Assembly: GCA_015075745.1 (NCBI GenBank)
Contig: JABTTW010000002.1
Span: forward strand, 446,453-510,452
Length of the DNA stretch: 64,000 nucleotides
Direction: 5' to 3'
Origin: Planctomycetia bacterium
Lineage (GTDB): Bacteria; Planctomycetota; Phycisphaerae; UBA1845; UTPLA1
Shown in pieces: positions 12,720 through 54,123 of the stretch (its first letter is position 1; each line of letters opens with the position of its first letter). Both the position numbers and the translations under genes were made by a program. The notes below the pieces were generated by a model, which was given only the letters and a program-made list of their open reading frames with translations, searched no databases and was not told the DNA's origin.

Positions 12720-12737
12720 TTTCAGCGCTAATTACCC

Positions 12738-15970: not shown

Positions 15971-16040
15971 GGATTTGATGCCGCCAATCGCCCGAAATCG
16001 CAGGTCGGAGCAGTCGATGGTCGCCGCGAATTGTGTGAAT

Positions 16041-34129: not shown

Positions 34130-34146
34130 GTCAATCTCCGTGCCAC
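34130..34146 (-). promoter_or_regulatory. Candidate sigma-54 (-24/-12) promoter upstream of the 30652-33957 gene (imperfect -12)
   Basis: The minus strand reads GTGGCACGGAGATTGAC, against the consensus TGGCACG-N4-TTGC. The -24 element is perfect and the -12 element is TTGA instead of TTGC. It lies about 175 nt upstream of ATG 33957. Confidence 0.25.
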
Positions 34147-38300: not shown

Positions 38301-41300
38301 TCAAGGCGGCGCCGTTGTACCGGACAGAGGCACCAGCTCAACGGGCAACCTGTATCGAGGCGAAAACACGGCCAACTTTGATTGGCGAGGAACCGCTCCT
38401 GGCCCGTATCGCGTCAATTTGTGGGGAAGAAACGGCTACTCAAAGGAAAACAACGAAGAGCTGGATGATTTCACGGACGTCATCAATCTCTGCGACGTCT
38501 TGAACAACACGCCCGCCGGCTCTTACGTCGCAACGGTGGCTGGGGCGGTGGACGAGGACGAATGGTGCCGCTACTTCGCCCTTCACAACATCCTCAGCAA
38601 CAAGGAAGGCGGCATCTATCGCGATACGGGCGATGACTACTACCTTTTTATGAACGAGGCTGGGCATGTCGACGGCCCTGACGCGAAGTTCATCACCTGG
38701 GATACCGATTCCGTTTTTCGCGACGCCTACGAAACCATCTGGCGCACGGGTAATAACAACAACACGATTGCCGCGGTTCGCAATTTTCTCCGACACAACG
38801 CCTTCGCGCCGATCTACGTCAAGGACATCAACGACCTGCTGGCGACCAATCTCTCCATCGCCAATTTCAATGCACGCATCGATACGATGCCGAATGCGGC
38901 TTTCTTCACGTCCGGCGGCAGCGCGGCCCTCCCCGCCACAAGGCAACAGTTCAAGGACTGGTTCGCGGGCAGAGTGACGTCGATCAATAACGAGACCATT
39001 GACGCCCTCACCCTGACGGGCATCCCAGTTTCCCCGTATACAAACGCGAATCCGATACTTGCCTTAAGCGGCCAACTCAATCAGGCCGGCACCCACAACG
39101 TCACGGTCAATGGAGTCCAGGCCACCTTCAGCGTGTACCAGGGCAACTGGTCGTACAACTACAACCTCTATCCGGGCCTGAACACGATCACGGTCAAGTC
39201 GTTTGACCGGCAGGCACAGGAAACGGCGAGCATCACCAGCACCGTTCTCTACGATCCTCCCCCGGCGACGCCGGGCCTGCGACTGACGGCGCCGACGCGC
39301 ATGGTCGACAGCAAGACGCTGACGCTCCGCGCGGACATCCTCGATTCTTCCGGCAACATTGACTGGCGAACGTGCACGCAACTCGGCACGGTCTCCGCGA
39401 CCCGCCTCTCGGACGGCAGCCCGGTCCCGACCTCGATCACCATCTTCGAAACACTCAACGGCGGCGCCGGCGGAGGAACCCCTCCAGCGGACTCGATTCG
39501 TTTCTACAACGGCGTCGGCAGTGTCTCGATCACACTGGACCAGGGAGCGGGAACGCCACCGGGAGATATTCTCATAACTGTCACCGTCGGCCCCATGATC
39601 GTGTCGAAGATCGTCAACGTTCTCGACGGCGATAATCCCGCGCTGTTCAGGAACCTTTCCGGGACGCTTACCGGCGCCGGATTGTTATGGGGACCGAGTG
39701 ACGGCGTCATTCATCTGACGGGCACCGTCACGGTCAATAGCGGCAACACGCTGACCATTCTGCCGGGCACCTTGATCATGGTTGATGCCGGACCGGTCAA
39801 CGACGGCACGGCAATCATCCCAACCGGCGGCGGGCAGATCAGCGCACCGGGTTCGCGCGCCGAGCCGATTTACTTCTTTGCCACCAATGGTCCCTCGGCC
39901 ATGGTCCTTCCGCAGAATGCGCAGAACAATAGTCCATCGTGGCGCGGCATCTACCATCAGGGCAATGGAAACTCTACCTACTCATTTGTGTTCTTCACCG
40001 GCGCTGGCAACGGCATCGTCTCCAGCCATCCGCGACCGCCTATTATTCGCGCGGAGAATTCGCACATACTCACGTTTAATGACTGCATCGTCGCGGACTG
40101 TCCGGGCATGGGAACTTCCGCCCTGGGCGGCTCCAGCGGCACTTACACATTCCGCCGTTGCCTCTTCTCGCGCGTCGGCATCGGCGGCGAGTGGCTCGGC
40201 TCGGGACTGACGCTGCTCATCGAAGACTCCTGGTTTACGCGCATTGGTCGCGCGCCTGAGCCGAACGGCGTGGACGGCGACATCCTGCACCTGGATCGCC
40301 CGGGCAACTCATACATCATTCGCCGAAGCGTGTTGACGGACTGCGGCGATGACATGATCGATCACAGCACGGGCGCCCAGCCGGTCGTTGAAAACTGCCT
40401 CTTATACGACTGCCGCGACAAGGTCGTGAGCATCGGCCCGTTGGTGAATGGCCCCGAGGCCACCATCACCATGACAAACTGTCTCATCTTCAACGGCCCG
40501 GGCGGCCTTCGCTGCAACCAGGCGCCGGCCATCCTGACAAATTGCACCCTGGGGGCGGGCACCAACGTAAACGGTCAGGGCTGCACCGGCACCTCGATTC
40601 AGCGTTGTATCCTCTGGACCAACAGCGCGAATACATGCTGCGGAGATGTTGACTACACCATCGTCGGGAATGCGGGACACCTCGAGTGCGGCACCGGCAA
40701 CTTGTCCACCGACCCGTTATTCGTCAATACGACCTGCAACTATGAACTACAGGCCGGTTCGCCGGCCCTCACGGCGGGCCCATCCGGCGACAGGATCGGC
40801 TGGCTCGGTTTCCCGGTTCCGCTCAACGGCTGCATTGACAACGGAGATTGCGACGACGGCGATCCCTGCACCACCGATTTCTGTAACAACGGCATCTGCG
40901 AATACACGTCTGTTCCCGGTTGTTGCCACATGGACGCTGATTGCGACGACGGCAGTCTCTGCACCGTCGACGCATGCGTCAATAACGTCTGCTCCAACAC
41001 ACCCACGGACTGCAGCGACGGAGACGCCTGCACGACGGACACCTGCAACCCACTGACCGGGTGCGAACACGCCGCCGCCAATTGCGACGACGGGAATCCC
41101 TGCACGGTCGATTCCTGCGACCCGATGCTCGGCTGTCAGAACATCCCGATTAACTGTCCGAAAGGGCATACATGCAATCAAACCAATGGTCAGTGCGAAA
41201 TCCTGCCGATCACCGTGGTCTTCCAAAACGGTCTCAACGGTTACGCCGATACTCAGGATACCTACTTCCAAGAGTCGGTTCCGACTGCGATCAATGGCGA

Positions 41301-44298
41301 TCTCGAAACCATCCGCTGGGATACCTCTAGTGGTTCGCCGGCGGGACCGGTCTATATGGTTGTTCGCTTTGACAACATCTTTGGAACGGGGCCCGGGCAG
41401 ATTCCGACGACCGCAACCATCCAATCGGCCACGCTGACCTACACGATCGGCGGCGATGCCAATGCGACCGGCAATGACGGTGATCTACGAGAGGTGCTCG
41501 TCAACTGGGATGAAGCCACAACCACCTACAACAACTTCGGCGGCACCGCCGGTGTTCAGGCGGGCGATCATACGGGCACCAGCCTCGCCGTTATGCCCGG
41601 CAGCCCGCTGGGCGCGAAGAATATCGACGTCACGAGCAGCCTCGCAACCTGGCTTGCCGCCCCGGCGACGAACCTGGGATGGATTGTGCTCCCGATAAGC
41701 ACCGACGGCGTTCAAGTTCGCTCCAGCGAGTTCGTCGCGACGCCGGTGGATCGGCCGACCCTTTCTGTCACGTTCCTGCCGATCAGTTGCGCAAACGATG
41801 GGGACTGTGACGATCTCGATCCGTGCACGATCGACGCCTGCGTCAATGACGCCTGTGAGAACACGCCCATCAACTGCGACGACATGGATCCATGTACGTC
41901 CGACGTCTGCAACGGTGGAATCTGTGATAACACGCCCATCATCGGCTGCTGCGAAGTCGATGGTGAATGCGACGACGGCAGCGTCTGCACGACCGATTCC
42001 TGCGTGAACAATATCTGTCAGAACACGCCGATCAACTGCGATGACGGCGACGCCTGCACGGAGGATACGTGTGACCCGATCAACGGTTGTCAGTACGCCG
42101 TAACAAGCTGCGACGACGGTGTTGATTGCACCGACGACTCCTGCGATCCCATGCTCGGCTGCCAGAACGTGAGCAACTGTCCGATGGGGCTGACATGCAA
42201 TACCGGCAACGGCCAGTGCGAGTCGCAGCCGGTGATGTTGATGTTCCAGGACGGCGTGTCGGGATACGACGCGACGGTGGACACCTTCATTCACGCCGGC
42301 AGTCCGACGGCCAACAACGCCGCGGCGACGGTTCTGGTTTGCGACGGTGCGATGCCGGCGGCGGCCGATGATCGCCAGGTCCTGCTTCGCTTCGACAGCA
42401 TCTTCGGCGACAACATCGATCAGATTCCACTGGGCTCGACGATCCAGTCGGCATCACTGACGGTCATGATCACCAACGCCAGCCTCACCGGCGCCTCGCT
42501 GCATCGCATGACGCAGGCCTGGCTCGACACCAACAACTGGAACACCTTCAACGTCAATGGCGACGGCATCCAGCCGGGCACCGAATGCGAAGCCGCGGCC
42601 GACGTGAGCAGCTTCCTCAACGCGACCAGCTCGCATTCCATCGACGTCACGGCGAGCCTGGTGGCATGGTCCGCCGGTCAGACGAATAACGGCTGGGTCT
42701 GGATCAACAACGGGGACGACTCCTGGCAGTTCAACTCCAGCGAGTTCGGCACCGTCGGCAGCCGGCCCAAGCTGAGCGTCACCTTCCTGCCGCCCACCGG
42801 CTGCATGAACGCCGGCGACTGCGACGACGGGAATCCCTGCACCGACGACGCCTGCAACATGGGGATGTGCGAATACACGAACAACTCTGCCGCCTGCGAC
42901 GACGGCCTCTTCTGCAACGGGCTCGAAACGTGCGATCCTCAGTTGGGTTGCGTGGCGGACCAGCCGTGTCAGCCGGGCGAGCAATGCGATGAGGCGGCCG
43001 ACCTGTGTCGTCAACCGCTGATGAGTTGCCAGATCACAGATCCGATGCCGTCGGCAGGCGGAAGCACACGCCTCGAGGTATTCCTTTCCGATGTGCTGAG
43101 CGTGCTAGGCTATGAAACCGAGATCAGCATCGTTCGCACCTCCGGCACGGGAACGGTGACCGTCGGTTGTCCGGGAGGGGTCGCCGTTGACGACGACCGT
43201 CCCGATTTCATCTTCTTTGGCGTCCCGGATGTCTTCCCGGCCGCGAACTGCGCTGCCAAGACGGCCGCCGCCGCGCGCTTGTCCGGCGGCACAAGCGTCA
43301 CCAGTGCGCCGGCTTATCTTTCGGAGTATGCCCTGACGGTCTCGCCGGACGCGTCCCCGGGCAGCACGTTTGAAATCTCAATCGTGCCCTCCCCCGGTGC
43401 CGACCTGACCAATCCGAACGGTCAGCCCATTCCGTTCCAAGTGGCGCCTGCCTGCGTCCTGACGGTCGTCGGTGGGTGCGCGGCGCCTGCCTGCCTGACC
43501 GTGCAGATCACGATACCCGGGCTCGCGGCGGGCCCTGTCGATCGCGATGTCGAGTGCACGCTGACCCGTTGCGGTTCTTCACCCGTGACGGTCACCGAGA
43601 CGGTCTTATTCACGCCGAACGCGGGCAATGGGATTGGCGCATTGACGCTGACCAATGTTGATCCGTTGACGACCTGGGTTTCGGTTCGGGAAGGACACAC
43701 CCTCAGCAGATTGGCGGCCGTGGACTTCAGCGGCGACAACGAGGACACCGTGTCGGTCTCGCTCGTATCCGGCGATCTCCAGACAGCCGTGATGCCACAG
43801 GACGACATCGTCGATATCCTCGACTTTGCGATTCTTTCGTCCCGGTTCAACACGACCGTGACCGACTGCGTGACCGGCGACCCCGAGGATTGCTCGCTGG
43901 GCGCAGACGTGACCGGCGACGGAGATCAGGACACAGTCGATTTCACGGCTCTCCAGATATATTTCTTCCAGGTCAGCGATCCACAGGATGCCTGTCCAGC
44001 CTTCGCGCCGCCGGGCAAACCGGGCCGCGAACCGCTGGCGCAGGATGATTTGAAATCGACTTCAAACAAGGCGCCGCCCCTGGCGATTCCGCGTGGGTTG
44101 GGCCGCATCGGCACAAGCCGATTGCGCGCGATGGATGCATCGCTCGTATCGGCTGATGAAAACGGCGACGGTATCGTCGACGCCGGGGACATCAGAGAAT
44201 TTTTCCGTCAGCATGGGATAGCCATTCTGCCGGCATTTGAGTTGAAGCTGCGGTCGATGGAGGCCGCTGAGAATAGTTTGCAACAGGACAGCCGCTAA
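35359..44298 (+). CDS. Giant secreted modular protein (about 2980 aa): 3 lamin-tail domains, CotH kinase-like domain, right-handed beta-helix, 3 Cys-rich modules alternating with 2 DNRLRE-like modules, cohesin-like module, dockerin-like C-terminal cassette
   Basis: Signal peptide ...SRKSQLAWGIALFLLTGTPAWAQ (alternative start ATG 35383). LTD motifs are RITEYMYSGANGEFIELTNLG..VDLTGWSLDD (35461), a paralogue at 36121, and IVINELNYHP...EFVEFYNAG..VDLSGWVISDG (36931). CotH blocks are KLILNANQPTRQKLGFDIFRDAGMP and YFALHNILSNKEGGIYRD..DYYLF. The Cys-rich repeat is C.DGDPCT.D.C....C. EF-hand loops are DVTGDGDQDTVD and DENGDGIVDAGD. Confidence 0.9.
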   Translation: MKRTESDPMNNSRKSQLAWGIALFLLTGTPAWAQVRITEYMYSGANGEFIELTNLGGSAVDLTGWSLDDSTNTPGSLSLSALGSVAAGESVVITESAEATFRAAWSLAPTVKILDGSGVVAGLGRNDSIFIYDASSALVDRLDYGDQTFSGSIRTQNASGWICTQGLGANDPFLWVLSVVADAQGSVASTGADVGSPGSFTSVACPSGPTGACCTMGSCADGVTQADCENGGGVYQGDASLCSGVTCPQPSNAPIRITEYMYAGLDGEFLELTNIGMNPVDMAGFSFDDNTNLPGTIDLTSFGTVAPGESVIITEAGEATFRTAWNLDPGIKIISGIAIDAALGRSDTLNIWDGSNSLVDRLQYGDQDFPGTIRTQNSSGWVCDAGLGQNNPHEWFLSFPADIQSSTTSTGGDVGSPGSYTGVDCASGPMVTLTDPPSLISVDALPSVTVTFSAAVSGVVAGNLTVNGSPATSVSGSGAGPYTFSGYAVPIPGNVDINVASGSIVSSPGGVPFLGYGWSLSVGIRIVINELNYHPHDVLHPTQDTEFVEFYNAGASQVDLSGWVISDGVVFTFAPATFLDPASYLVIAVNPTALQAATGHAGALQWTSGALSNGGERVAIRDSFGNLMDEVEYSDGGAWPSQPDGSGPSLELINPNLPNQYAASWRASSGINGTPGAQNSVFNAAPAPIIISPMHTPSIPAPSTPVTVTALVLDDGMSPPNVTLNYRQDAVSPGAYLQTPMLDDGAHGDGAAGDDTYGATLTGLANGEQYDFYITADDGSAVSTFPRNHPTANGSCSAVGCQADQNPTCVLCQTLLCKFSNETLPTDFPVYHIIVSRPNKSTQESLSCNTSPVAFDPCKTEFDATFVDDTGKVYYNVTERYRGQSSITLFPKSYAVDFATDNQLPTPLGFSVRKLILNANQPTRQKLGFDIFRDAGMPASVCEFIRLRFTGINYDTTNIGSIGFNGLYACIERVDGDFLNSQGGAVVPDRGTSSTGNLYRGENTANFDWRGTAPGPYRVNLWGRNGYSKENNEELDDFTDVINLCDVLNNTPAGSYVATVAGAVDEDEWCRYFALHNILSNKEGGIYRDTGDDYYLFMNEAGHVDGPDAKFITWDTDSVFRDAYETIWRTGNNNNTIAAVRNFLRHNAFAPIYVKDINDLLATNLSIANFNARIDTMPNAAFFTSGGSAALPATRQQFKDWFAGRVTSINNETIDALTLTGIPVSPYTNANPILALSGQLNQAGTHNVTVNGVQATFSVYQGNWSYNYNLYPGLNTITVKSFDRQAQETASITSTVLYDPPPATPGLRLTAPTRMVDSKTLTLRADILDSSGNIDWRTCTQLGTVSATRLSDGSPVPTSITIFETLNGGAGGGTPPADSIRFYNGVGSVSITLDQGAGTPPGDILITVTVGPMIVSKIVNVLDGDNPALFRNLSGTLTGAGLLWGPSDGVIHLTGTVTVNSGNTLTILPGTLIMVDAGPVNDGTAIIPTGGGQISAPGSRAEPIYFFATNGPSAMVLPQNAQNNSPSWRGIYHQGNGNSTYSFVFFTGAGNGIVSSHPRPPIIRAENSHILTFNDCIVADCPGMGTSALGGSSGTYTFRRCLFSRVGIGGEWLGSGLTLLIEDSWFTRIGRAPEPNGVDGDILHLDRPGNSYIIRRSVLTDCGDDMIDHSTGAQPVVENCLLYDCRDKVVSIGPLVNGPEATITMTNCLIFNGPGGLRCNQAPAILTNCTLGAGTNVNGQGCTGTSIQRCILWTNSANTCCGDVDYTIVGNAGHLECGTGNLSTDPLFVNTTCNYELQAGSPALTAGPSGDRIGWLGFPVPLNGCIDNGDCDDGDPCTTDFCNNGICEYTSVPGCCHMDADCDDGSLCTVDACVNNVCSNTPTDCSDGDACTTDTCNPLTGCEHAAANCDDGNPCTVDSCDPMLGCQNIPINCPKGHTCNQTNGQCEILPITVVFQNGLNGYADTQDTYFQESVPTAINGDLETIRWDTSSGSPAGPVYMVVRFDNIFGTGPGQIPTTATIQSATLTYTIGGDANATGNDGDLREVLVNWDEATTTYNNFGGTAGVQAGDHTGTSLAVMPGSPLGAKNIDVTSSLATWLAAPATNLGWIVLPISTDGVQVRSSEFVATPVDRPTLSVTFLPISCANDGDCDDLDPCTIDACVNDACENTPINCDDMDPCTSDVCNGGICDNTPIIGCCEVDGECDDGSVCTTDSCVNNICQNTPINCDDGDACTEDTCDPINGCQYAVTSCDDGVDCTDDSCDPMLGCQNVSNCPMGLTCNTGNGQCESQPVMLMFQDGVSGYDATVDTFIHAGSPTANNAAATVLVCDGAMPAAADDRQVLLRFDSIFGDNIDQIPLGSTIQSASLTVMITNASLTGASLHRMTQAWLDTNNWNTFNVNGDGIQPGTECEAAADVSSFLNATSSHSIDVTASLVAWSAGQTNNGWVWINNGDDSWQFNSSEFGTVGSRPKLSVTFLPPTGCMNAGDCDDGNPCTDDACNMGMCEYTNNSAACDDGLFCNGLETCDPQLGCVADQPCQPGEQCDEAADLCRQPLMSCQITDPMPSAGGSTRLEVFLSDVLSVLGYETEISIVRTSGTGTVTVGCPGGVAVDDDRPDFIFFGVPDVFPAANCAAKTAAAARLSGGTSVTSAPAYLSEYALTVSPDASPGSTFEISIVPSPGADLTNPNGQPIPFQVAPACVLTVVGGCAAPACLTVQITIPGLAAGPVDRDVECTLTRCGSSPVTVTETVLFTPNAGNGIGALTLTNVDPLTTWVSVREGHTLSRLAAVDFSGDNEDTVSVSLVSGDLQTAVMPQDDIVDILDFAILSSRFNTTVTDCVTGDPEDCSLGADVTGDGDQDTVDFTALQIYFFQVSDPQDACPAFAPPGKPGREPLAQDDLKSTSNKAPPLAIPRGLGRIGTSRLRAMDASLVSADENGDGIVDAGDIREFFRQHGIAILPAFELKLRSMEAAENSLQQDSR
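43486..44295 (+). repeat. Paralogous C-terminal cassette, copy 1 (beta-sandwich + split dockerin-like EF-hand pair)
   Basis: CLTVQITIPGL...WVSVREGHTLSRL...SGDLQTAVMPQDDIVDILDFAILSSRFNTTVTDCVTGDPEDCSLGADVTGDGDQDTVDFTALQIYFF...DENGDGIVDAGDIREFFRQHGI. Aligns along its length with 45970-46791 and 51961-52780. Confidence 0.8.
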
Positions 44299-44415
44299 GT
44301 CGGCTTCTTCGTTGCCGAATTGTTGAGAGTTTTTGAAGTTGACCGCTCTTGACAATAGAGCGGGCAACACTGGGCCATGTAGCTGTTATTGATGTCCTGA
44401 AAGGGGAAATACGTC

Positions 44416-46794
44416 ATGAAGAGCCTTTCACAAATCGCACGCAACGCCTTTTTCGGCGCCTGCCTGTTTCTGTTGATCGTGCAGTCCGCACATGCCATTA
44501 CAGGAACCGTGCAGCTTCGAACCGGCCTTGAGCCGGCGGCGGTGTGCGAGACCACGGCCACATCGACCGTCAGCGTGACCCTCGAGGTCGCTGACCTTGT
44601 GGACGCACTCGGCGTCAACGGCGTGCAGGTACGATTGAGCTACGATAACTCCGTCTTGGCGCTGAATTCCGGCAGCACCACCGAGCTCTCCGGCTTCACT
44701 CGAATCTACCTCGCCGACAGCGCCGGACTTGTCACCTACGCAATCGTCAACAATGGCGGTTCCGTCGGTCCCGGGGTTGGGCCGTTCTCCGTGGCGACGC
44801 TCGTTTTTGACGTCATGGGCGAGGGAAACACCGCGGTCACCTTTCAGGCGGATAGCAGTCCCTTCGTGACCAGCTTGACCACAGCCGAACAGAACCCCCA
44901 ATTCATCACCGGCGCGAACCTCATCAAAACTCCCTCCGGCGCCATCAGCATCGACGACACCACTGCGACCGCCTCCAGCAACAGTCCGGTCTGCGAAGGC
45001 GACTCCCTCACCCTCGACGGCGGTACCACTGGCACGCTTCCAAATTCTCCCTATTCATTCTCCTGGTCCGGCCCTGACGGCTTCTCCTCGAATGATGAGG
45101 ATCCCGAAGTCTCCGCCAGCGCCACATCCGCGATGGCAGGAACCTATACCCTGACCGTGACAAACGCCCAGGGTTGCACATTCCAGGCAATGACCGAAGT
45201 TGTCGTCAACGCGAACCCCGCTTGCTCCATTACGACTGCCTCCCCTGTTTGCTCCGGGTCCAACAACACCGCCGATGGGCCGGCCGGCATGACCACCTAC
45301 GTCTGGTCCGTCATAGGCGGCTCGCTCGACATGGGACAAGGCACTTCCCAAATTTCCTACACAGCAGGCGCAGGCCCGACGGTCACGATTGATCTGACCG
45401 TCACCGACGCCAACGGTTGCAGCAGCAGTTGTCAGGAGATCGTAACGGTTGAAACGGCCCCGACCGCCGACGCAGGCATGGATCAGACCATCTGCTCCGG
45501 CAGCGACGTCACCCTCGACGGAACCTGCGGCGGCGCAACCGGCAGCCTCTGGTCCTCCATCGGCGACGGCACCTTCGGCGACGACTCGATGGAAGACACC
45601 ACCTACACACCCGGCGCAGCTGACCTGCTCGCCGGAACCGTGACACTCACCCTGACCTGCAGCGGCAACGCCTGTCCGGCCGCGATGGACTCGCTCGTCG
45701 TGACCATCGAATCCGCACCCACCGCCGACGCCGGCATGGATCAGACCATCTGCAGCGGCAGCGACGTCACCCTCGACGGAACCTGCGGCGGCGCAACCGG
45801 CAGCCTCTGGACCTCCAGCGGCGACGGCGCCTTCGGCGACAATTCGCTCGAAGACACCACCTACACACCCGGCGCGGCCGACCTGCTCGCCGGGACTGTC
45901 ACGCTGACACTCACCTGCAATGGCAACGCCTGTCCGGCCGCGATGGACTCGCTCGTCGTGACCATTCAAGGATGCGTCACCGTAAATCTCGAAGTGCCCG
46001 GCCTGCTCGGCGACGCCGCTGAGGGCGAGCATGTGGCGGATCGGTCCGTTCAGTTCGACCTGACCACTTGCCCCGGAACGGTCGACTCCCGAACGCAGAC
46101 CGTTGAATTCAAGCGGACTGGGTTGAATGGCACGGCAACGGTGATCCTCGCCAACCCGAATCCGTCGGCGACCTGGCTGAGCGTCGTCGAAGGTCACACG
46201 TTGCGCCGGCGCGTGCCGATTGACCTCTCCATAAACGGTTCGGACGTCGTAACAGTAAGCCTGATCTCCGGAGACCTGCAGACTTCAACGGTGCCGCAGG
46301 ATGCGCTGGTTGACATCGTTGACTTTTCCATCCTTGCATCTCGATGGAATACGGTTGTGTCCGATTGCGTGGGCGGCGACCCCGAGGATTGCTCGTTGGG
46401 CGCAGACGTGACCGGCGACGGCGAACAGGACACGGTCGACTTCACCGCCATTCAAATTTACTTCTTCAGTGTCGGTGATGACGTGAGCAATTGCGGGGTG
46501 ATCAGTCCTCCCGCCGGCCCCAAGAAGAAGGACGGCGGGATCGCAGTCGCTACCGTCTCCGTCCCAGTACCGATTCGCAGGGGCGCCACCGGGCTCCCGG
46601 GCAGAACGTCGATTTCCGTCGGTGAACTGACAACTCTCGACGCCCGGGCCGCTCTGGCAGACGTCAACGGCGATGGCACCGTGGATGCCAGTGACATTCG
46701 ACTGTTCGCCCGACAGCAAGGACTTCCGATCCTCGAGTCGTTCGATCAGAAGCTCAAGGCCATCGAGGCCTCGAATTTTGAGCAGGGCAACTAA
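44416..46794 (+). CDS. Secreted protein (792 aa): N-terminal cohesin-like module, Ig/SprB-type repeats, dockerin-like C-terminal cassette
   Basis: Signal peptide MKSLSQIARNAFFGACLFLLIVQSAHA. Cohesin-like block VSVTLEVADLVDALGVNGVQVRLSYDNSVLAL. Repeats SNSPVCEGDSLTL...Y.W.GPDGF...AGTYTLTVTNAQGC and ADAGMDQTICSGSDVTLDG. Cassette as in 43486-44295. Confidence 0.9.
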   Translation: MKSLSQIARNAFFGACLFLLIVQSAHAITGTVQLRTGLEPAAVCETTATSTVSVTLEVADLVDALGVNGVQVRLSYDNSVLALNSGSTTELSGFTRIYLADSAGLVTYAIVNNGGSVGPGVGPFSVATLVFDVMGEGNTAVTFQADSSPFVTSLTTAEQNPQFITGANLIKTPSGAISIDDTTATASSNSPVCEGDSLTLDGGTTGTLPNSPYSFSWSGPDGFSSNDEDPEVSASATSAMAGTYTLTVTNAQGCTFQAMTEVVVNANPACSITTASPVCSGSNNTADGPAGMTTYVWSVIGGSLDMGQGTSQISYTAGAGPTVTIDLTVTDANGCSSSCQEIVTVETAPTADAGMDQTICSGSDVTLDGTCGGATGSLWSSIGDGTFGDDSMEDTTYTPGAADLLAGTVTLTLTCSGNACPAAMDSLVVTIESAPTADAGMDQTICSGSDVTLDGTCGGATGSLWTSSGDGAFGDNSLEDTTYTPGAADLLAGTVTLTLTCNGNACPAAMDSLVVTIQGCVTVNLEVPGLLGDAAEGEHVADRSVQFDLTTCPGTVDSRTQTVEFKRTGLNGTATVILANPNPSATWLSVVEGHTLRRRVPIDLSINGSDVVTVSLISGDLQTSTVPQDALVDIVDFSILASRWNTVVSDCVGGDPEDCSLGADVTGDGEQDTVDFTAIQIYFFSVGDDVSNCGVISPPAGPKKKDGGIAVATVSVPVPIRRGATGLPGRTSISVGELTTLDARAALADVNGDGTVDASDIRLFARQQGLPILESFDQKLKAIEASNFEQGN
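45451..45966 (+). repeat. Tandem duplication, 2 x 258 nt (86 aa) inside the 792-aa gene
   Basis: Units 45451-45708 and 45709-45966 are roughly 88-90 percent identical by eye. They share identical runs over 50 nt long, for example GGCAGCGACGTCACCCTCGACGGAACCTGCGGCGGCGCAACCGGCAGCCTCTGG. Confidence 0.9.
45970..46791 (+). repeat. Paralogous C-terminal cassette, copy 2
   Basis: CVTVNLEVPGL...WLSVVEGHTLRRR...SGDLQTSTVPQDALVDIVDFSILASRWNTVVSDCVGGDPEDCSLGADVTGDGEQDTVDFTAIQIYFF...DVNGDGTVDASDIRLFARQQGL. A nucleotide stretch of about 45 nt (GACCCCGAGGATTGCTCG.TGGGCGCAGACGTGACCGGCGACGG) is nearly identical to copy 1. Confidence 0.8.
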
Positions 46795-46823
46795 TAATGC
46801 CCGGTTCTTGGGAGTAAGTACCT

Positions 46824-47639
46824 ATGTGTGGCACAGTAAAAACACAGTTAACTTGGTTAACGGGCTTTGCGAATCGCACGTTCGCTGAGCCTTCCCGGAG
46901 GCTGCGCGGTCATCGGACGCCATGGGTGGTGCCGCTGCTCACCCTTGTCACGATGTTGCCGTCCGTTTCCATCGCCGCGATCAATCTCGAATTCCGTCCG
47001 CCGCAAAAAATTGCCCGGCCGGGAGAGTGGGTCGATGCGGGTCTCTATGCCGTATCCGACAACGCCTCGAATCAGCCGATCTCCGCCATGGACGTCCTCC
47101 TCCAATGGGACCCGACAACCCTTCAACTCATCGGCGTCATCAATAACGGGCCCTTCGGCTGGTTCCAATCGGGATTTCTTGACGACAGCGGTCTTGACGG
47201 GCTGAATAACACATTCGCCGACGGAGATGCCAAATATACGGCACTGGGGCAGTTTGCCAATCCAGCCATGGCGACTCCCGCGGGCCTGCTGGTGACGACG
47301 ATCCGCTTTCAGGCGATTGCCGAGACGCCGCTCAACACCGTCACGATACCGCTCATGCTTGGGAATTCCACCGAAACCGGGGTTTACGGCACTGCCGTTC
47401 CCGGTCAGGACGTGACCGGCACGCTTGGCGTGTCGGAGGTCATGATCTGCCCCGGGGCAGCCGACGGCGATATCAACCTCGATGGCAACACCGATGGCTT
47501 GGATATCCAAAGTTTTATCCAGGCCATGATACTAGAATCGACCGCCTTTTCCGACGTTTGTCGCGCGGATTTCAGCGGAGACAGCGAAGTGAGTGTCAAC
47601 GATATCGCCGGAATGGTTCAGTCGTTACTGGATGGATGA
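46824..47639 (+). CDS. Small secreted cohesin-like + compact dockerin-like protein (271 aa)
   Basis: GGGAG RBS at 46810. Cohesin-like block PISAMDVLLQWDPTTLQLIGV...LLVTTIRFQAI. Compact dockerin DGDINLDGNTDGLDIQSFIQAMI...ADFSGDSEVSVNDIAGMVQSLL (two D.N.DG.....D loops about 22 aa apart). Confidence 0.85.
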   Translation: MCGTVKTQLTWLTGFANRTFAEPSRRLRGHRTPWVVPLLTLVTMLPSVSIAAINLEFRPPQKIARPGEWVDAGLYAVSDNASNQPISAMDVLLQWDPTTLQLIGVINNGPFGWFQSGFLDDSGLDGLNNTFADGDAKYTALGQFANPAMATPAGLLVTTIRFQAIAETPLNTVTIPLMLGNSTETGVYGTAVPGQDVTGTLGVSEVMICPGAADGDINLDGNTDGLDIQSFIQAMILESTAFSDVCRADFSGDSEVSVNDIAGMVQSLLDG

Positions 47640-47734
47640 TCTCGTGGATCGTGTCGCCGCGCGACAAAACGTGTCACGCCGCGGCCGGGTCGTCAAGAGT
47701 TTGCTTATCATGCGAGGGTCAAGGGAGTGGCAAT

Positions 47735-50700
47735 ATGCCCGCAGGTGGTGCTCAGGTTGCGAAGGATGCTCGACATTTGATTCCCCATCGCCGCTGGTTG
47801 CCGCGGTTTCTTGCCGCGCTGGTAACTGCTGCGCTTTGCTCGACATCATTTGCCAATGTGGTCATCACCGAATTGATGTACCACCCGCTCAACGACAACG
47901 AGGCGCAAGAGTTCCTCGAAATTCAAAATACCGGGGCCTCCGCCGTTTCTCTCACCGGTTGGTGCGTCGAGGGCATTGACTACTGTTTCACCGCCGGAAC
48001 GACCATCGCACCGGGCGACTACATGCTCCTCGCGAAGGACGCCGCCCAATTCCAGACCGCCTACGGTTTTCCTCCCGACTTTGTTTACACAGGCCAGCTC
48101 AGTAACAGCGGTGAGCGCATCGCGATCAAGAACGCTTCCGCCGTCGTCCAGGATGAGGTCGAGTACTCCGACGTGGGTTTCTGGCCGACAAAGGCCGATG
48201 GCCAGGGACCATCCCTGGAAAGAATCGATCCGTTGCTCAACGGCAACACCCCGCGCAATTGGCGCGCCTGCATCGCCGGCCCGGGCCACACGGCCAATGC
48301 GGTGAACAGCGTCAACGCCGTCGGGCTTCCCCCGTGGATCAGCGAGATCACTCACACTGCCGATCCGTCCGCCATGGCGACGATCACCGTCACCGCCCGC
48401 ATCGAAGACGCGACAACAAACAGCTTCTACTACAAGATCGGTTTTACCGCCGAGGTCGCCGGCGTTATGTTCGATGACGGCGCGCATGGCGATGGCGCGG
48501 CAGGCGACGGGGTCTTCGGCGCGGAAATCCCCGGCCAGCCCGTTAGCACGCTCATCCGCTACCGGATCACAGCCAGCGGCCCCACCGGCCAGATGAGCTA
48601 CCCGCGCACCGATGACACCATCACCTACGCCGGTCTCATGGTGCAGGACCCCGGCCTCGTCACGGACCTGCCCGTGTTTCACTGGTTCATGGACCCGGCT
48701 GCCTACGCCGCGGCGATCGCCCACAAGCTGACGGATCAACTTGAGCCCGCCGTCTTCGCCTATGACGGCGTCGTCTATGATGGCGTGATGGTGCGCGTGC
48801 GCGGTCAGACATCTCGCCAATGGCCGAAGAATCACTGGAAGTTTTACATGCCGCAGGGGCACGATTTCTTCGCCCCCGGCCTGTTCGCGCTGCCGGTTGA
48901 CCAGTTCAATCTCCAGTGCAATTACTCCGACAAGGCCTACGTCCGCGAGATACTGGCTTACGAATCATTTCGTGACTCCGGCAACCCGTCGAACCAGGTT
49001 TTCCACGTCCGGCTCCAGCAGAACGGCCAGTTCTTCGGTCTGTACAACTTCCTTGAGTCCATGGATGAAGACTACATCGCACGAAACAAACTCGACACGA
49101 ATGCCGCGTGGTACAAGGCCGACGACGATTGCCGTTTTCGGTCGCTGGCTCAGCTTCCAAACGAATATCAGAAGGAACAGCGCCTGACCGAAGACTATTC
49201 CGACCTCTTCGCCCTGCTCGACGGCATCAACAACCTCACCGGCCAGGCAAAGACGGACTTCATTTTTGACAACGTCAACATCCCGGCCATGCTCAATTTC
49301 CTGGCCGCCCAGTGCATCGTTCACAACAACGATCACGTCGCCAAGAACTACTATCTCTACCGCGACACCGAGGGCACCGGTCGCTGGACATGCCAGACCT
49401 GGGACATGGACCTGACCTTCGGAAGGAATTTCGGCGCAGGCGGCGGCGTCCTCAGCGACGGAATCTGGGCAGACGACGACGCGCCCCATCCGAGCAATAC
49501 GCTTGTCTCACCCAGCCATCCGCTCTTCGGCGATACAAACCACCGCAAATGGGACGACCTCTGGAATCGGCTCATCAACGTCGTGCATGCCGATCTTAAC
49601 ATTCGCGCGATGTATCATCGCCGGCTTCGAACACTGGCCGATGAGCTCCTTCAAGCCGGTAGATACGAAGATCGCATCGACGAACTCGTCTCCCACATCG
49701 GCCCCGAGGCCGTTCTGGACGTTGCGAAGTGGGGCCAATATGGCCAATCTCAATCGCTCGCCACGGCCGTCAACATTCTCAAGAACGACTACCTCGCCGT
49801 CCGCAGAATCCACCTGCTCACGAACCATCGTGTCCCCGGCGAGATTCCCGAGGCCCAATCATTTCACCCGAAAATCGTCATCAACGAGCTGATGTATAAC
49901 CCCGCCGTCTCCGGCGATCACGAATTCATTGAGCTGTACAATCCATCTCCGACCGAGGCCGTGGACCTGTCCGGATGGCGGCTCGACGGCGTCGCACTCG
50001 TCATCCCGCCGGGATCGGTCATTCTCCCCAATGGATATATGCTCGTGGTCCGAGGCGACGTTCAGTTCCGCACACAATACGGATCGGGCAAATTCGTAGC
50101 GGCCCAATACTCCGGAAATCTCGACGGCGGAGGAGAGACCCTCACGCTGCGTCACAAGGACGGTACTGTCATCGATACAGTCACTTACGACGACGCGACC
50201 CCCTGGCCGACAAGTCCGGACGGCGGCGGCTACTCCCTGGAGTTGATCGATGCCTCCCAGGACAACGACCGAGTCGGCAACTGGGCGGCCAGCGCTTCTC
50301 CCGGCGGCACGCCCGGGCTGCCCAACAGCATGGCCGGCTTCACGCCGACCGTACCGCCGATTTTCATCAACGAGGCCCTACCGGATAACGAGTCGAAGAA
50401 TCGGGACGAGGCCGGACAGTTCGATCCCTGGGTCGAGCTTTACAACGCCGGAGAGGCGACCGTCGAAATCGGCGGAATGTATCTGACCAATACCTATGGA
50501 AATCCGACCCTTTGGCAGATTCCCCCCGAAACTCAGATTTGCGGCGGAGAGCACCTGCTCATCTGGACGGATGGTTCAGTCGGCGAGGGCCCGCTTCACG
50601 CAAACTTCACGATCGGGTTGACGACCGGCTCGGTTGGTCTTTACTCATCCACCGGGCACATTATCGACTACTTGAACTATGCCAACGTCCCTTCCAACAT

Positions 50701-52783
50701 CTCCTTTGGCCGGCTTCCCGACGGCGGTCATCAGCTGCTCCAATTTGCCATCGTCACGCCGGTCGCCCCGAATGACGGCGACGCAACGCCGATCATCCTG
50801 AATGAATACAACGCCGTCAGACCCACCGGACTCCTCAAGGACAACGGCTCCGACACGTTCTGGGGCCGTGTCCTCGCCAATGGCGGCGATTGGTTTGAAA
50901 TGGTCATCACCCGGGACCACACCGACATCAGAGGATGGCAGTTGGTCGTCAGTGACAACACGGGCATCGGGACGCCGCTGACGCTGACCCTGACCAATGA
51001 CCCGATCTGGTCAGACCTGCGCAGAGGAACCTTGATCACCGTCTCCGAAGACCTCCCCGATGACGTCTCCTACAGTCCGGCCTCGGGCGACTGGTGGATC
51101 AACGTTCGCGCGGCCAACGCCGGGACCGGCACATACATCACGGCCGCCGACTTCGAAGTGTCTCACACCAACTGGCAACTGACCATCAAGGATGAAGTCG
51201 GAGTCACGATGTTCGGTCCGGCCGGCGAGGGAATCGAGCCGGTCAGTGGGATTGGCAACGACGAAGTCTTCAAGCTTGAGCAGGATCCCGGCGCATTTAT
51301 TCACCCCAAGTCCGACTACAACGACGGAACTTCCAGCACTTTTGGTTCCCCAAACATCTATTCCGCCGGCACCGTGACACAGGACTTCACGGTGCTGCGA
51401 GGCAGTTTCATGCCCTGCATGCTTCCCGCCGAATGTGACGACGGCAATCCCTGTACCATCGACGACTGCGTCGACGGCGAATGCGTCAACACGCCAATGT
51501 CACCCTGCGACCAGCTCAGCCTCAACTGGCCGGAGGCAACGGGGCCGGAAATTAAGGCCTGTCCGGGCTCGCAAATCGTCCTGACACTCGATGTCTCCGG
51601 CCTGCACGCGCCCATCAACGGTGTCCAGGCGATTCTGAACTACGACACAAGTCTCCTGAGCCTCGTCAGCATGACGCCCGGAGACGGCGGAGCGTCGCCC
51701 TGGAATTCCGCCGCCGAAGTCTTCGAAGACGACACCGACGGACTGATCAAGTACGCCGTGATTCTCCTCGCGACAAGCTCTCAGGCGGACGCCACGGTGG
51801 CCACGTTGACGTTTGACGTTCTCGCTCCCGGCGGCAACATAAACCCCAGCCGGGTCGCCTTCTCAACGACCTGCCTGCCCGTTCGCAACAAGTTGACGAC
51901 CTTCGATAACCAGACCATCTCCCCTGTCACCATCGATTCCGATCCCATCACCATTGGACCGCGCATCGACGTGGCCCTTCAGATTCAGGGACTCGGCTTC
52001 GAGGTCACGCGGGACGTGACGTTTACGATAACGAACTGCACCCAAGTGCTGCAGGTCATCACCACCCCCGTCACGTTTGGGCCGGGAGGCCTGGCCGAAC
52101 TTGTTCTGACCAATGTCGATCCGACAGCCGAGTGGATTGCCGCGGTCGAAGGACACACGCTTCAGTCCCGATTGCCGATTGCCTTCACCACCTGTTTCGC
52201 AAGTGCCCACTTTGTGGCCTCTGATCAATTGATCTCCGGCGACCTCCGCACCAGTGGAGTGCCGCAGGATAACCTCATCGACATCCTCGACTATGCCATT
52301 CTCGCGGCACGCTGGAATACCATGGTCACCGATTGCCCGATCGGACTTCCCGCGGATTGCGGCTTTGGCGCCGACGTTAATGGTGACGGCCAGCAGGGGA
52401 CCATTGACTTCACGGCGCTTCAGATTAACTTTTTCCTCGCCGGGGATTCGGCCGCCGATTGTCCGCCGCCGACCCCGCCGCCGTCGACCGGCCCCAAGGG
52501 TGGGACGCCGATCGCGGACGCCGGCGTTGCATCGGAGCCGATCCGACCGAGGGGACCGTCGGCCGTACGGACCGGCAAGCGCTCACTGTCCGTGGCGGAG
52601 GCAGTCAGGCTCAATCCCCGCCTGGGTGTTGCCGATCAGGATTCGGACGGCATGATTGACGCGAAAGACGTCCGCGCCTTCGCCGAGAAACACGGGATCG
52701 TGATGCCCCGGGAAGCATGGGATCGCCTGTCCGATGCTGATCAGGGCGTGGGAAGTCCTGCCGTCGAAAACTCGGCTCGATAA
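47735..52783 (+). CDS. Giant secreted modular protein (about 1680 aa): LTD, CotH kinase-like domain, 3 further LTDs, Cys-rich module, cohesin-like module, dockerin-like C-terminal cassette
   Basis: ATG 47735 follows AAGGGAG, and the upstream in-frame extension overlaps the previous gene. Signal LPRFLAALVTAALCSTSFA. LTD motifs VVITELMYHP...EFLEIQNTG..VSLTGWCVEG, IVINELMYNP..EFIELYNPS..VDLSGWRLDG, IFINEALPDN and IILNEYNAV. CotH blocks VRVRGQTSRQWPKNHWKFYMP, NYSDKAYVREILAYESFRDSGNPS and NYYLYRDTEGTGRWTCQTWDMDLTFG. Cohesin block INGVQAILNYDTSLLSLVS. Confidence 0.9.
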   Translation: MPAGGAQVAKDARHLIPHRRWLPRFLAALVTAALCSTSFANVVITELMYHPLNDNEAQEFLEIQNTGASAVSLTGWCVEGIDYCFTAGTTIAPGDYMLLAKDAAQFQTAYGFPPDFVYTGQLSNSGERIAIKNASAVVQDEVEYSDVGFWPTKADGQGPSLERIDPLLNGNTPRNWRACIAGPGHTANAVNSVNAVGLPPWISEITHTADPSAMATITVTARIEDATTNSFYYKIGFTAEVAGVMFDDGAHGDGAAGDGVFGAEIPGQPVSTLIRYRITASGPTGQMSYPRTDDTITYAGLMVQDPGLVTDLPVFHWFMDPAAYAAAIAHKLTDQLEPAVFAYDGVVYDGVMVRVRGQTSRQWPKNHWKFYMPQGHDFFAPGLFALPVDQFNLQCNYSDKAYVREILAYESFRDSGNPSNQVFHVRLQQNGQFFGLYNFLESMDEDYIARNKLDTNAAWYKADDDCRFRSLAQLPNEYQKEQRLTEDYSDLFALLDGINNLTGQAKTDFIFDNVNIPAMLNFLAAQCIVHNNDHVAKNYYLYRDTEGTGRWTCQTWDMDLTFGRNFGAGGGVLSDGIWADDDAPHPSNTLVSPSHPLFGDTNHRKWDDLWNRLINVVHADLNIRAMYHRRLRTLADELLQAGRYEDRIDELVSHIGPEAVLDVAKWGQYGQSQSLATAVNILKNDYLAVRRIHLLTNHRVPGEIPEAQSFHPKIVINELMYNPAVSGDHEFIELYNPSPTEAVDLSGWRLDGVALVIPPGSVILPNGYMLVVRGDVQFRTQYGSGKFVAAQYSGNLDGGGETLTLRHKDGTVIDTVTYDDATPWPTSPDGGGYSLELIDASQDNDRVGNWAASASPGGTPGLPNSMAGFTPTVPPIFINEALPDNESKNRDEAGQFDPWVELYNAGEATVEIGGMYLTNTYGNPTLWQIPPETQICGGEHLLIWTDGSVGEGPLHANFTIGLTTGSVGLYSSTGHIIDYLNYANVPSNISFGRLPDGGHQLLQFAIVTPVAPNDGDATPIILNEYNAVRPTGLLKDNGSDTFWGRVLANGGDWFEMVITRDHTDIRGWQLVVSDNTGIGTPLTLTLTNDPIWSDLRRGTLITVSEDLPDDVSYSPASGDWWINVRAANAGTGTYITAADFEVSHTNWQLTIKDEVGVTMFGPAGEGIEPVSGIGNDEVFKLEQDPGAFIHPKSDYNDGTSSTFGSPNIYSAGTVTQDFTVLRGSFMPCMLPAECDDGNPCTIDDCVDGECVNTPMSPCDQLSLNWPEATGPEIKACPGSQIVLTLDVSGLHAPINGVQAILNYDTSLLSLVSMTPGDGGASPWNSAAEVFEDDTDGLIKYAVILLATSSQADATVATLTFDVLAPGGNINPSRVAFSTTCLPVRNKLTTFDNQTISPVTIDSDPITIGPRIDVALQIQGLGFEVTRDVTFTITNCTQVLQVITTPVTFGPGGLAELVLTNVDPTAEWIAAVEGHTLQSRLPIAFTTCFASAHFVASDQLISGDLRTSGVPQDNLIDILDYAILAARWNTMVTDCPIGLPADCGFGADVNGDGQQGTIDFTALQINFFLAGDSAADCPPPTPPPSTGPKGGTPIADAGVASEPIRPRGPSAVRTGKRSLSVAEAVRLNPRLGVADQDSDGMIDAKDVRAFAEKHGIVMPREAWDRLSDADQGVGSPAVENSAR
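51961..52780 (+). repeat. Paralogous C-terminal cassette, copy 3
   Basis: RIDVALQIQGL...WIAAVEGHTLQSRL...SGDLRTSGVPQDNLIDILDYAILAARWNTMVTDCPIGLPADCGFGADVNGDGQQGTIDFTALQINFF...DQDSDGMIDAKDVRAFAEKHGI. Confidence 0.8.
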
Positions 52784-52926
52784 AGGCGCCATCGCCCGCT
52801 GCCGAGCGGCATTCAGACTCGTAATTCAGGCCCATTTGCACATGGGGTTGCTCGGGGGATCGCGTAAGATTATTCCATAATCGGCGGTCGCCTGTGATAA
52901 CTGCCGCAGGATGGGGGGAGGGGTTT

Positions 52927-54123
52927 GTGAAGCGGTTAACGACAAGGCTATTAGCCCTCGCTGCAGGGCTCGCCGCGACTGCCGGCACGCTCGCACCAGT
53001 ACGCGGCCAGGCCGTGATGACCTGCGAACTGTCGAGCATCACAGCCGTTCCCGGCAGCGAACTGTCGATGCACACGTTACTTCAGAACGCGGCCAACGTC
53101 CGTGGCTATCAGACCAGAATTTCCATCATTCGCCTCAGCGGCGCCGGCACACTCAGCGTTCCCTGCCCCGGCGGAAACGGGGACTCCCACGTCAGCGTTA
53201 ATACGCTTCGGCCCGACTACATCTTTTTCGGCCTCTCCTCGACAAACACGGCGACGAACTGTCCGGGCAAAGCTGCCGGCGCTTTATACAACGCCGGCGG
53301 AGTGACGATCGGCACTACGCCGGCATACCTTTCAACCTATGAATTGGAAGTCTCTCTCGACGCGACTCCAGGCAGCACATTCCAGATTTCAATCGAGCCA
53401 TTTCCGCTGTCCAGCATCTCGTTGATGGGCGGCGGATTTCTTCCCTTCAAGGCGGATTCGCCCTGCATTCTGACCGTCCTGGCTTCAGAGTCGCTGACAT
53501 TCGATCTCGATTTCTGTACCACCTGCGTTCCCACTTCATCGGTCGTTCGCGTGCCGCTGCGTGTTTCAGGCCTCCTGGAGCCCGTCAACGGCGTACAGGC
53601 TCTCTTCAGCTACGATCCTTCGATCCTGACGCTCACCGGCGCCACGGTCGGAGACCAGATGGGCTCGCCCTGGGACACGGCCTCGCTCGTCCATCTAAAC
53701 GGCAACGCGGGTAATGGGGTCATCGCCGTCGGCCTGAACGGCAGTTCCTCGCAGTCCGACGCGACCGTCGCCACCCTGCTTTTTGACGCAATCGGCCCCG
53801 GAGAAACCTCCGTCGATTTCCGCGCCGCTTCGCCCCCGTTCGCAACCAAGATCACCTCGGTGACCAATGAGGTCATCGTCCCGAACGAAATCGACTCGCC
53901 AACCATCGTCTCCGGCGCTCATTCCAAGGGCGACGTCAACGGCGACGGCCAGCGCGACGGCCTCGATGTTCAGCAATTCGTCGACACGATTCTCAATCCG
54001 GGCGCCGCAACAGCAGGCGAGCTCTGTGCCGGCGACTTGAGCGGCGATGGAAGCGTGACCGGAGATCAGGACGTCCCCCTCTTCGTCGATTGTCTCGTCA
54101 ACGAAATCTGCGTTTGCCCATGA
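52927..54123 (+). CDS. Secreted double cohesin-like + compact dockerin-like protein (about 400 aa)
   Basis: GTG 52927 follows a GGGGGGAGGGG run. Signal KRLTTRLLALAAGLAATAGTLAPVRGQA. The first module is paralogous to 43021-43470 (RPDYIFFG...TPAYLSTYELEVSLDATPGSTFQISI). The second is cohesin-like (VNGVQALFSYDPSILTLTG...ATVATLLFDAIGPG). C-terminal dockerin GDVNGDGQRDGLDVQQFVDTIL...GDLSGDGSVTGDQDVPLFVDCLV. Confidence 0.85.
   Translation: MKRLTTRLLALAAGLAATAGTLAPVRGQAVMTCELSSITAVPGSELSMHTLLQNAANVRGYQTRISIIRLSGAGTLSVPCPGGNGDSHVSVNTLRPDYIFFGLSSTNTATNCPGKAAGALYNAGGVTIGTTPAYLSTYELEVSLDATPGSTFQISIEPFPLSSISLMGGGFLPFKADSPCILTVLASESLTFDLDFCTTCVPTSSVVRVPLRVSGLLEPVNGVQALFSYDPSILTLTGATVGDQMGSPWDTASLVHLNGNAGNGVIAVGLNGSSSQSDATVATLLFDAIGPGETSVDFRAASPPFATKITSVTNEVIVPNEIDSPTIVSGAHSKGDVNGDGQRDGLDVQQFVDTILNPGAATAGELCAGDLSGDGSVTGDQDVPLFVDCLVNEICVCP

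Follow-up and report, generated by a model that had tools for sequence, protein, structure and literature searches.

In cellulosomes, the type II X-module-dockerin (XDoc) dyad docks the scaffoldin onto the type II cohesins of anchoring proteins, and cohesin-dockerin assembly is known almost entirely from the cellulosomes of Firmicutes. Peer et al. are said to have recorded, in 2009, many non-cellulosomal dockerin-like modules with no known cohesin partner. Here we describe a cassette of about 270 amino acids (aa) at the C-terminus of three secreted proteins encoded in one gene cluster of Planctomycetia bacterium (GenBank assembly GCA_015075745.1, contig JABTTW010000002.1, positions 446,453 to 510,452). 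The whole 64,000-nucleotide (nt) stretch that was analysed is called the window, and coordinates count from its first letter. With a probability of about 65%, we read the cassette as an X-dockerin-type C-terminal docking module that joins diverse extracellular cargo to cohesin partners in a non-cellulolytic assembly. It is an X-dockerin-like unit extended by an EF-hand lobe; from this phylum and functional setting, such modules are not known to have been characterised before.

A non-cellulolytic cohesin/dockerin assembly, the 'planctosome', has been hypothesised for freshwater Phycisphaerae (Nemodlikiaceae); in the part of the paper drawn on here, its components are giant proteins with lamin-tail domains (LTDs) and adaptors bearing both a cohesin and a dockerin, and the model is built on the Pfam domains for cohesin and dockerin and on peptidases as cargo (Andrei et al., ISME J 2019, PMC6461901). 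The cluster in the window likewise holds LTD/CotH giants, cohesins and small cohesin-plus-dockerin proteins. In contrast, neither the composite cassette of X module, dockerin and EF-hand lobe nor the pairing of a cassette gene with a following cohesin gene is described in that part of the paper (PMC6461901). As with the non-cellulosomal cohesin and dockerin modules of Peer et al. (2009, as cited in PMC6461901), the setting lies outside cellulolytic organisms and the carriers are varied extracellular proteins. However, those modules are reportedly mostly isolated and single, whereas the window shows a fixed three-part cassette with a conserved cohesin neighbour. Among the papers searched, none links X-dockerins with Planctomycetes.

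Three secreted proteins end in the same three-part cassette

The cassette region is made up of five genes, all in the same direction:

35260-44298, + strand: open reading frame (ORF) of 3012 aa, gene of cassette copy 1
44416-46794, + strand: ORF of 792 aa, gene of copy 2
46824-47639, + strand: gene of a secreted 271-aa protein, directly 3' of the copy 2 gene
47558-52783, + strand: ORF of 1741 aa, gene of copy 3
52894-54123, + strand: gene of a secreted 409-aa protein, directly 3' of the copy 3 gene

The true start of the 1741-aa ORF is probably near 47732, after a signal-peptide-like N-terminus. All three cassette proteins carry N-terminal Sec signal peptides, so the cassette is dispensable for export across the inner membrane. 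Both the 3012-aa and the 1741-aa protein contain a CotH kinase domain and three LTDs, and the 3012-aa protein has in addition a CBM96 and a glucodextranase-B-like domain.

The initial annotation, made from sequence without database searches, had proposed that the last 270 aa or so of the three cassette ORFs align end to end. Their C-terminal ~270-300 aa indeed aligned to each other over the full length, with copies 2 and 3 being 50% and 39% identical to copy 1. The 86 invariant alignment columns fell in the beta-sandwich, in both Ca-loop regions and in the tail, and the similarity is therefore not limited to the Ca loops. The order of motifs given there was correct in all three copies, and the coordinates held, except that copy 3 is in frame from 51962 rather than 51961. 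The carriers had also been called the three largest proteins, which does not apply to the 792-aa ORF, as it is outranked by a cassette-free ORF of 1164 aa (30652-34146).

Based on alignment, local hidden Markov models (HMMs), Pfam and AlphaFold2 (AF2) models with their predicted local distance difference test (pLDDT) values, the three copies divide as follows:

43489-43761, + strand: copy 1, X-like beta-sandwich module (local HMM boundaries; AF2; aligns to the X module of type II XDoc)
43762-43983, + strand: copy 1, dockerin (Pfam Dockerin_1, 23.0 bits; AF2 helices; Foldseek matches to XDoc)
43984-44100, + strand: copy 1, variable Pro/Gly-rich loop (pLDDT <50 at residues 183-195)
44101-44295, + strand: copy 1, third EF-hand lobe, Arg-terminated (local C-terminal HMM "Ct", E=3e-24; AF2 pLDDT 87-98)
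45970-46260, + strand: copy 2, X-like beta-sandwich (alignment, AF2, local HMM)
46261-46482, + strand: copy 2, dockerin (Pfam Dockerin_1, 32 bits; local HMM)
46483-46602, + strand: copy 2, Pro-rich loop (pLDDT <50 at residues 177-210)
46603-46791, + strand: copy 2, third EF-hand lobe and tail
51962-52213, + strand: copy 3, X-like beta-sandwich, with a cohesin directly before it
52229-52450, + strand: copy 3, dockerin (Dockerin_1, 21.8 bits, below the cut-off; local HMM E=4e-37)
52451-52576, + strand: copy 3, Pro-rich loop
52577-52780, + strand: copy 3, third EF-hand lobe and tail, Arg-terminated

Pfam Dockerin_1 (PF00404, gathering score 22.9 bits) matched the region SGDLQT...QIxFF of the excised cassettes with 23.0 (copy 1), 32.0 (copy 2) and 21.8 bits (copy 3); in the full-length 3012-aa protein it scored 17.7 bits, and among cassette relatives it matched 21/40 at E≤1e-3. 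In the Pfam and NCBIfam scan, the first ~100 aa, corresponding to the X part, had no match. Two EF-hand loops had been recognised in the initial annotation. What it did not recognise is that the SGDLQT...ILxxRxN region upstream of the first loop is an additional, degenerate third repeat, which makes up a complete dockerin jointly with that loop. The first Ca loop is atypical and long (~17 residues, with D97, D106, D110 and D113 invariant), and the second and third loops follow the canonical pattern DxNGDGxxDxxD. In copy 1, the long first loop of the dockerin reads GDLQT..PQDDIVDILDF, the second loop (DVTGDGDQDTVD) is canonical and has a conserved Cys behind it, and the third lobe is laid out as helix-helix-DENGDGIVDAGD-helix-long helix. 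EF-hand profiles (PF13202, PF00036, PF13405) scored 11.7-14.5 bits on the third loop, below their cut-offs of ~25; by eye its 12 residues, DxNGDGxVDxxD, are canonical. Two Cys are invariant or nearly so throughout the family: the first lies in the sandwich (TxC), the second directly behind the dockerin (DxCP). A disulfide staple between them would be plausible.

The predicted fold matches type II X-dockerin dyads

An AF2 model of copy 1 built from a 55-sequence alignment reached a pLDDT of 91.6 and a predicted template modelling score (pTM) of 0.84, and superseded an earlier, mediocre model of copy 2 (14 sequences, pLDDT 69). In the copy 1 model, a seven-strand beta-sandwich (residues 2-92, pLDDT ~97) is followed by a three-helix dockerin (residues ~96-165; helices 111-119, 133-135 and 150-159, with pLDDT >95) that is formed by two tandem F-hand segments. 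The Pro-rich loop (residues ~178-205) is the sole disordered part, and residues 207-270 form a helix-helix-loop-helix-long-helix lobe. As the pTM is 0.84 over 270 residues, the third lobe is placed confidently on the X-dockerin pair; judged from the pTM, not from coordinates, we infer that the whole cassette would be one compact unit.

A Foldseek search of the PDB with this confident model gave three matches at E≤1e-3, all of them type II X-dockerin dyads: 4u3s_B from Acetivibrio cellulolyticus ScaA (E=1.3e-6, TM-score 0.64 normalised to the target, 177 columns), and 4fl4_L and 5g5d_B, both from Clostridium thermocellum CipA. The alignments span both the X and the dockerin module (177-185 columns, E 1e-6 to 5e-5), with TM-scores of 0.61-0.64 normalised to the 156-residue chains 4u3s_B and 5g5d_B and of 0.33 for the 306-residue 4fl4_L. 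For the independent copy 2 model, the best match was 4wi0_B, again an XDoc dyad.

As in the XDoc dyads of CipA (5g5d, 4fl4) and ScaA (4u3s, 4wi0), the Ig-like X module in the predicted structure lies immediately N-terminal to the two-repeat dockerin, contiguous with it and packed along it. A further likeness to type II XDoc dyads is that the carriers are large, secreted proteins of many modules, often with cohesins of their own, and that the unit lies at their C-terminus. In contrast to these dyads, the host is a member of Planctomycetota and not of Firmicutes, the cargo is non-cellulolytic and identity is 15-18%. The cassette also differs in its atypical 17-residue first loop, in the near-invariant Cys in the X module and behind the dockerin, and in ~100 further residues, always present, that comprise the Pro-rich loop, the third EF-hand lobe, the long helix and the terminal Arg. 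Among sequence families, NCBIfam NF041540 (GC-type dockerin, a dockerin-derived C-terminal anchoring domain) gave weak matches to copy 2 (E=0.067) and copy 3 (E=0.0035); with 13.6-17.7 bits where 29 are required, the cassette falls outside this family.

Cohesins occur inside and directly downstream of cassette genes

The cluster encodes four cohesin-like modules, in the 792-, 271-, 1741- and 409-aa proteins, and two canonical, compact dockerins:

44518-44922, + strand: cohesin-like module at the N-terminus of the 792-aa protein (Pfam Cohesin E=0.0046; iterated local HMM E=1e-29)
46983-47381, + strand: cohesin-like module of the 271-aa protein (weaker Pfam Cohesin match)
47466-47627, + strand: canonical C-terminal dockerin of the 271-aa protein
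51533-51943, + strand: cohesin of the 1741-aa protein, directly before the cassette (Pfam Cohesin E=8e-8 to 4e-9)
53497-53901, + strand: cohesin of the 409-aa protein (Pfam Cohesin)
53926-54060, + strand: canonical C-terminal dockerin of the 409-aa protein

Cohesins are thus encoded in the same locus as the cassettes, as in a cohesin-dockerin system. For each cassette gene in the window, the product of the next gene opens, behind its signal peptide, with a cohesin, and two of these three products are small; in the 409-aa protein, a domain that we call 'U' precedes the cohesin.

The same arrangement was quantified across related loci. A cohesin was present inside the cassette ORF in 40/88 cases, and 55/79 loci had at least one cohesin; Pfam Cohesin confirmed 40/59 modules sampled from related loci. 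A cohesin on the same strand began 0-2 kb 3' of the cassette gene in 36/71 cases, compared with 6/64 at 2-4 kb (Fisher p=1.2e-7). These downstream cohesins lay at a median of 242 nt past the stop of the cassette gene, and none was on the opposite strand. The downstream proteins fall into two size classes, ~250-275 aa and ~365-440 aa, and usually have a dockerin-type Ca loop at their end.

The cohesins themselves form two clades. Of the 40 cohesins that are part of a cassette protein, 38 belong to clade 1 (79 modules). Clade 2 has 33 modules; 28 of these occur in proteins whose genes lie just downstream of a cassette gene (27 in proteins shorter than 520 aa), and one lies inside a cassette protein. 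Two cohesin clades with different contexts recall the division into type I and type II in cellulosomes.

The cassette terminates diverse extracellular proteins of Planctomycetota

A word-index search found 12 relatives of the cassette and badly understated the family, so that an exhaustive profile search of 1.84 billion representatives was required. This search matched 1366 proteins at E≤1e-3. At the stricter E≤1e-30, the family counts at least 132 sequence clusters, almost all of which matched the full profile at their extreme C-terminus, in proteins of ~250-3500 aa. A scan of one genome per species yielded 77 loci in ~35 genomes, with up to 11 loci per genome, all of them in metagenome-assembled genomes (MAGs) labelled Planctomycetota or Phycisphaerae save a few labelled 'uncultured bacterium'. 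According to the local HMMs, all three parts were present in 82 of the 104 matching ORFs, the exceptions being mostly cut by contig ends, and none of the 104 carried two cassettes. The median number of residues after the last module was 12. One relative, P0012 (338 aa, ENA), has WD40 repeats joined directly to the dockerin and third lobe with no X module, and may be an assembly chimera or a genuine alternative architecture.

The cargo is diverse and extracellular in character: Cys-rich repeats of the Dicty_CTDC and Disintegrin families, PKD and Ig domains, Laminin_G_3, cohesin, LTD, CotH, peptidase M6 and phosphoesterase. The commonest cargo is a Dicty_CTDC-type repeat together with Disintegrin. 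As no glycoside hydrolase family was among the top cargo families, the system is not a cellulosome.

The final residue of the cassette was Arg in 103 of 150 unique cassettes (69%), compared with 18% in other long ORFs of the same loci, and the tail frequently reads RR or RRR. In the window, the terminal Arg is encoded at 44293-44295 in copy 1 and at 52778-52780 in copy 3.

Alternative explanations for a shared C-terminal cassette

The clustering of the three cassette genes on one strand, and a near-identical patch shared by copies 1 and 2, would fit a recent duplication or module shuffling within the locus instead of a functional module maintained over a long time. The initial annotation had reported the patch, of about 45 nt, as a sign of gene conversion or recent shuffling. 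It is real, with these coordinates:

43876-43922, + strand: near-identical tract, copy 1 side
46375-46421, + strand: near-identical tract, copy 2 side

The two sides are identical at 46/47 nt, and 92% identical over 71 nt; outside the tract, nucleotide identity between copies 1 and 2 is 0.2-0.65, with 0.17-0.33 in the Pro/Gly-rich loop. Within the tract, the same codon is used at 15 of 16 consecutive conserved codons against a background of 44%; the scan-wide p is 0.0008 in a permutation test and 0.0026 when the null allows for the codon usage of each amino acid. There was no same-codon excess for copies 1 and 3 or copies 2 and 3. Elsewhere, the cassettes are old paralogues. The proportion of differing synonymous sites (pS, Nei-Gojobori) among them is ~0.68-0.70, the synonymous rate dS 1.8-2.1 and the nonsynonymous-to-synonymous ratio dN/dS 0.27-0.33. 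Synonymous sites of copies 1 and 2 are saturated outside the tract (pS 0.68): of 140 conserved degenerate codons, 62 are the same, and 62.5 are expected from codon usage. Each copy also has a separate orthologue in other MAGs, copy 1 on metagenomic contig L003, copy 2 in L002 (93%), L004 (82%) and L001 (61%), and copy 3 in the 1722-aa protein of L001, and the family spans the ~35 genomes of the species-representative scan. Within the tract, copy 1 is nearer to copy 2 (0.92-0.94) than to its own orthologue on L003 (0.79-0.85). At sites where copy 1 differs from this orthologue, copy 2 matches copy 1 at 11/14 in the tract and at 33/98 elsewhere (Fisher p=0.002), which is the signature of a short conversion on old paralogues. 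The tract is thus probably a short gene-conversion event of ~50-90 nt on ancient paralogues; conversion is retained, limited to this one tract between copies 1 and 2, and recent shuffling is not. As an explanation for the cassette, recent duplication is very improbable and already largely refuted.

Two further explanations concern function. The cassette might be a C-terminal sorting or attachment signal that is read by its own machinery for export or anchoring, much like the C-terminal domain (CTD) of the type IX secretion system (T9SS) or exosortase and sortase signals, and is then processed or fixes the protein to the envelope. It shares with T9SS CTD, PEP-CTERM and LPXTG signals its place at the extreme C-terminus of unrelated cargo, its multiple copies per genome and a basic tail, here with the excess of terminal Arg and the frequent RR or RRR. 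However, it has no signature motif and no transmembrane segment ahead of the terminal Arg; the 60 aa before the basic tail are an amphipathic, helical EF-hand lobe with no hydrophobic stretch. Known sorting signals are also far smaller than this unit of 270 aa and three folded modules. A T9SS CTD is a terminal beta-sandwich of 80-100 aa, whereas the sandwich of the cassette comprises residues 1-95 and is followed by ~175 residues, leaving it ~170 aa from the C-terminus. Export is already explained by the N-terminal Sec signals, no sortase- or exosortase-like gene or other processing-enzyme partner was seen among the window genes scanned, and the fold matches XDoc alone. A secretion or sorting signal, which the initial annotation had offered alongside docking, is hence unlikely. 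Alternatively, the cassette could act as a Ca-dependent anchor to a carbohydrate or surface, that is, to the cell's own glycan, to peptidoglycan or to a substrate, with no cohesin partner involved. In line with this, the beta-sandwich had weaker Foldseek matches to the carbohydrate-binding module (CBM) family CBM41 (2j72, 2j71), half of the cassette genes have no adjacent cohesin gene, and non-cellulosomal dockerin-like modules reportedly often have no known cohesin partner. Yet the CBM matches cover ~100 residues with E 4e-4 to 3e-2, compared with ~180 residues and E 1e-6 for XDoc, the Pfam scan of the cassette detected no CBM family, and cohesin genes are strongly enriched downstream (p=1.2e-7). 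We consider such an anchor distinctly unlikely.

A possible extracellular assembly based on the cassette

The common docking module suggested in the initial annotation is supported by the dockerin match, by the XDoc fold matches and by the cohesins in the cluster and directly downstream of related cassette genes in about 35 genomes. In the mechanism that we propose, cassette proteins would be exported by their N-terminal Sec signal peptides. The Ig-like beta-sandwich, as the X module, would pack on the two-repeat, Ca-binding dockerin, and the third EF-hand/helical lobe would fold back on this pair via the disordered Pro-rich loop. The dockerin would then bind a partner cohesin in a Ca-dependent manner, buttressed by the X module, as in type II XDoc, and also by the third lobe. 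Candidate partners are the small cohesin-plus-dockerin proteins encoded directly downstream, or the cohesins of other cassette proteins. A multi-protein, non-cellulolytic, cellulosome-like complex could thus be assembled, with CotH kinase/LTD giants, PKD/Ig arrays, Cys-rich repeats, lectin-like domains and a peptidase among its cargo. Since a cohesin is present in many cassette proteins as well, the assemblies could be hierarchical or form chains. We infer that binding takes place, which cohesin is bound, that Ca is needed for it and that the third lobe serves as a clamp or an additional binding surface.

Several observations weigh against a docking module of this type. Sequence likeness to solved dockerins is marginal: a profile search against PDB sequences found at best one Ca loop of a type I dockerin (E=0.009), and nothing for the X module. 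The XDoc assignment therefore rests on the predicted structure, with a TM-score of 0.6 and 15-18% identity, and as the relation is invisible by sequence, we call the architecture of the cassette XDoc-like without claiming that it derives from clostridial modules. The first Ca loop is non-canonical. Known XDoc modules also lack both the third lobe, which is invariably present here, and the terminal Arg (69%), and these two elements may point to another or a further function. The cohesin partner is suggested by gene adjacency, and in the 2 kb downstream, half of the cassette genes lack a cohesin gene. Inspection of the window by eye for lipoprotein or transmembrane anchors found no membrane- or wall-anchored cohesin protein.

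A more specific version, which is possible but rather doubtful, is that the cassette and the cohesin-plus-dockerin protein encoded downstream form a cognate pair, and that this pairing is the building rule of a Phycisphaerae-wide extracellular assembly via the two cohesin clades. The cohesin clade confined to the adaptors (28/33) would bind the cassette of X module, dockerin and EF-hand lobe, and the canonical dockerin of the adaptor would bind the other clade, carried by the cassette proteins (38/40). This would link giant CotH/LTD and adhesin-like proteins to one another in a lattice or fibre on the cell surface, with the third EF-hand lobe as a new element that might set specificity or act as a Ca switch.

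If the docking module is real, an X-dockerin unit with a third EF-hand lobe terminates more than 100 different extracellular proteins of uncultured Planctomycetota, with a cohesin gene regularly adjoining. The speculative planctosome would then become a concrete hypothesis with defined parts and offer a handle on how these bacteria arrange giant surface proteins, for example the CotH kinase/lamin-tail proteins. The modules may also provide new orthogonal, high-affinity protein-protein connectors for synthetic biology.

Other features of the window

The 'U' domain, of ~155 aa, is common to the 3012-aa protein (43009-43473) and the 409-aa protein (53005-53484), with 42% identity. In the former it adjoins the copy 1 cassette upstream, in the latter it is N-terminal to the cohesin and dockerin, and it also occurs in a 391-aa protein of L001. 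A Pfam search with the domain gave no match, and its reading as a divergent cohesin was rejected (hhalign probability 0.5%). Cys-rich repeats of the Dicty_CTDC type are found in both giants: the 3012-aa protein has arrays of 23-24-aa repeats (CDDGNPCTxDxC) at 40820-42920, and the 1741-aa protein has one such repeat just ahead of its cohesin, at 51404-51500.

In the gene scan, the remainder of the window consists of ordinary chromosomal genes, among them a two-component/sigma-54 regulator pair, alanine dehydrogenase, carbamoyltransferase, BatA/VWA and a GT2 glycosyltransferase. The 1164-aa ORF, on the minus strand, is divergent to the cluster and just upstream of it; it encodes Ig I-set domains and a MopE-type putative metal-binding motif, and has no cassette, cohesin or dockerin. 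A scan for promoters and terminators was uninformative (23 terminator-like sites in the cluster, 15.8 +/- 3.7 expected). At 12001-16000, G+C is ~0.546 compared with ~0.61 elsewhere, and the ORFs there have either no Pfam match or a sub-threshold C1_1 match alone; this segment may be foreign or fast-evolving.

Just 5' of the copy 2 cassette, at 45463-45965, the 792-aa gene contains a 258-nt tandem duplication (1.9 copies, 91% identical) that encodes two 86-aa repeats (APTADAGMDQTICSGSDVTLDGTCGGATGSLW...). This duplication is far younger than the paralogy of the cassettes.

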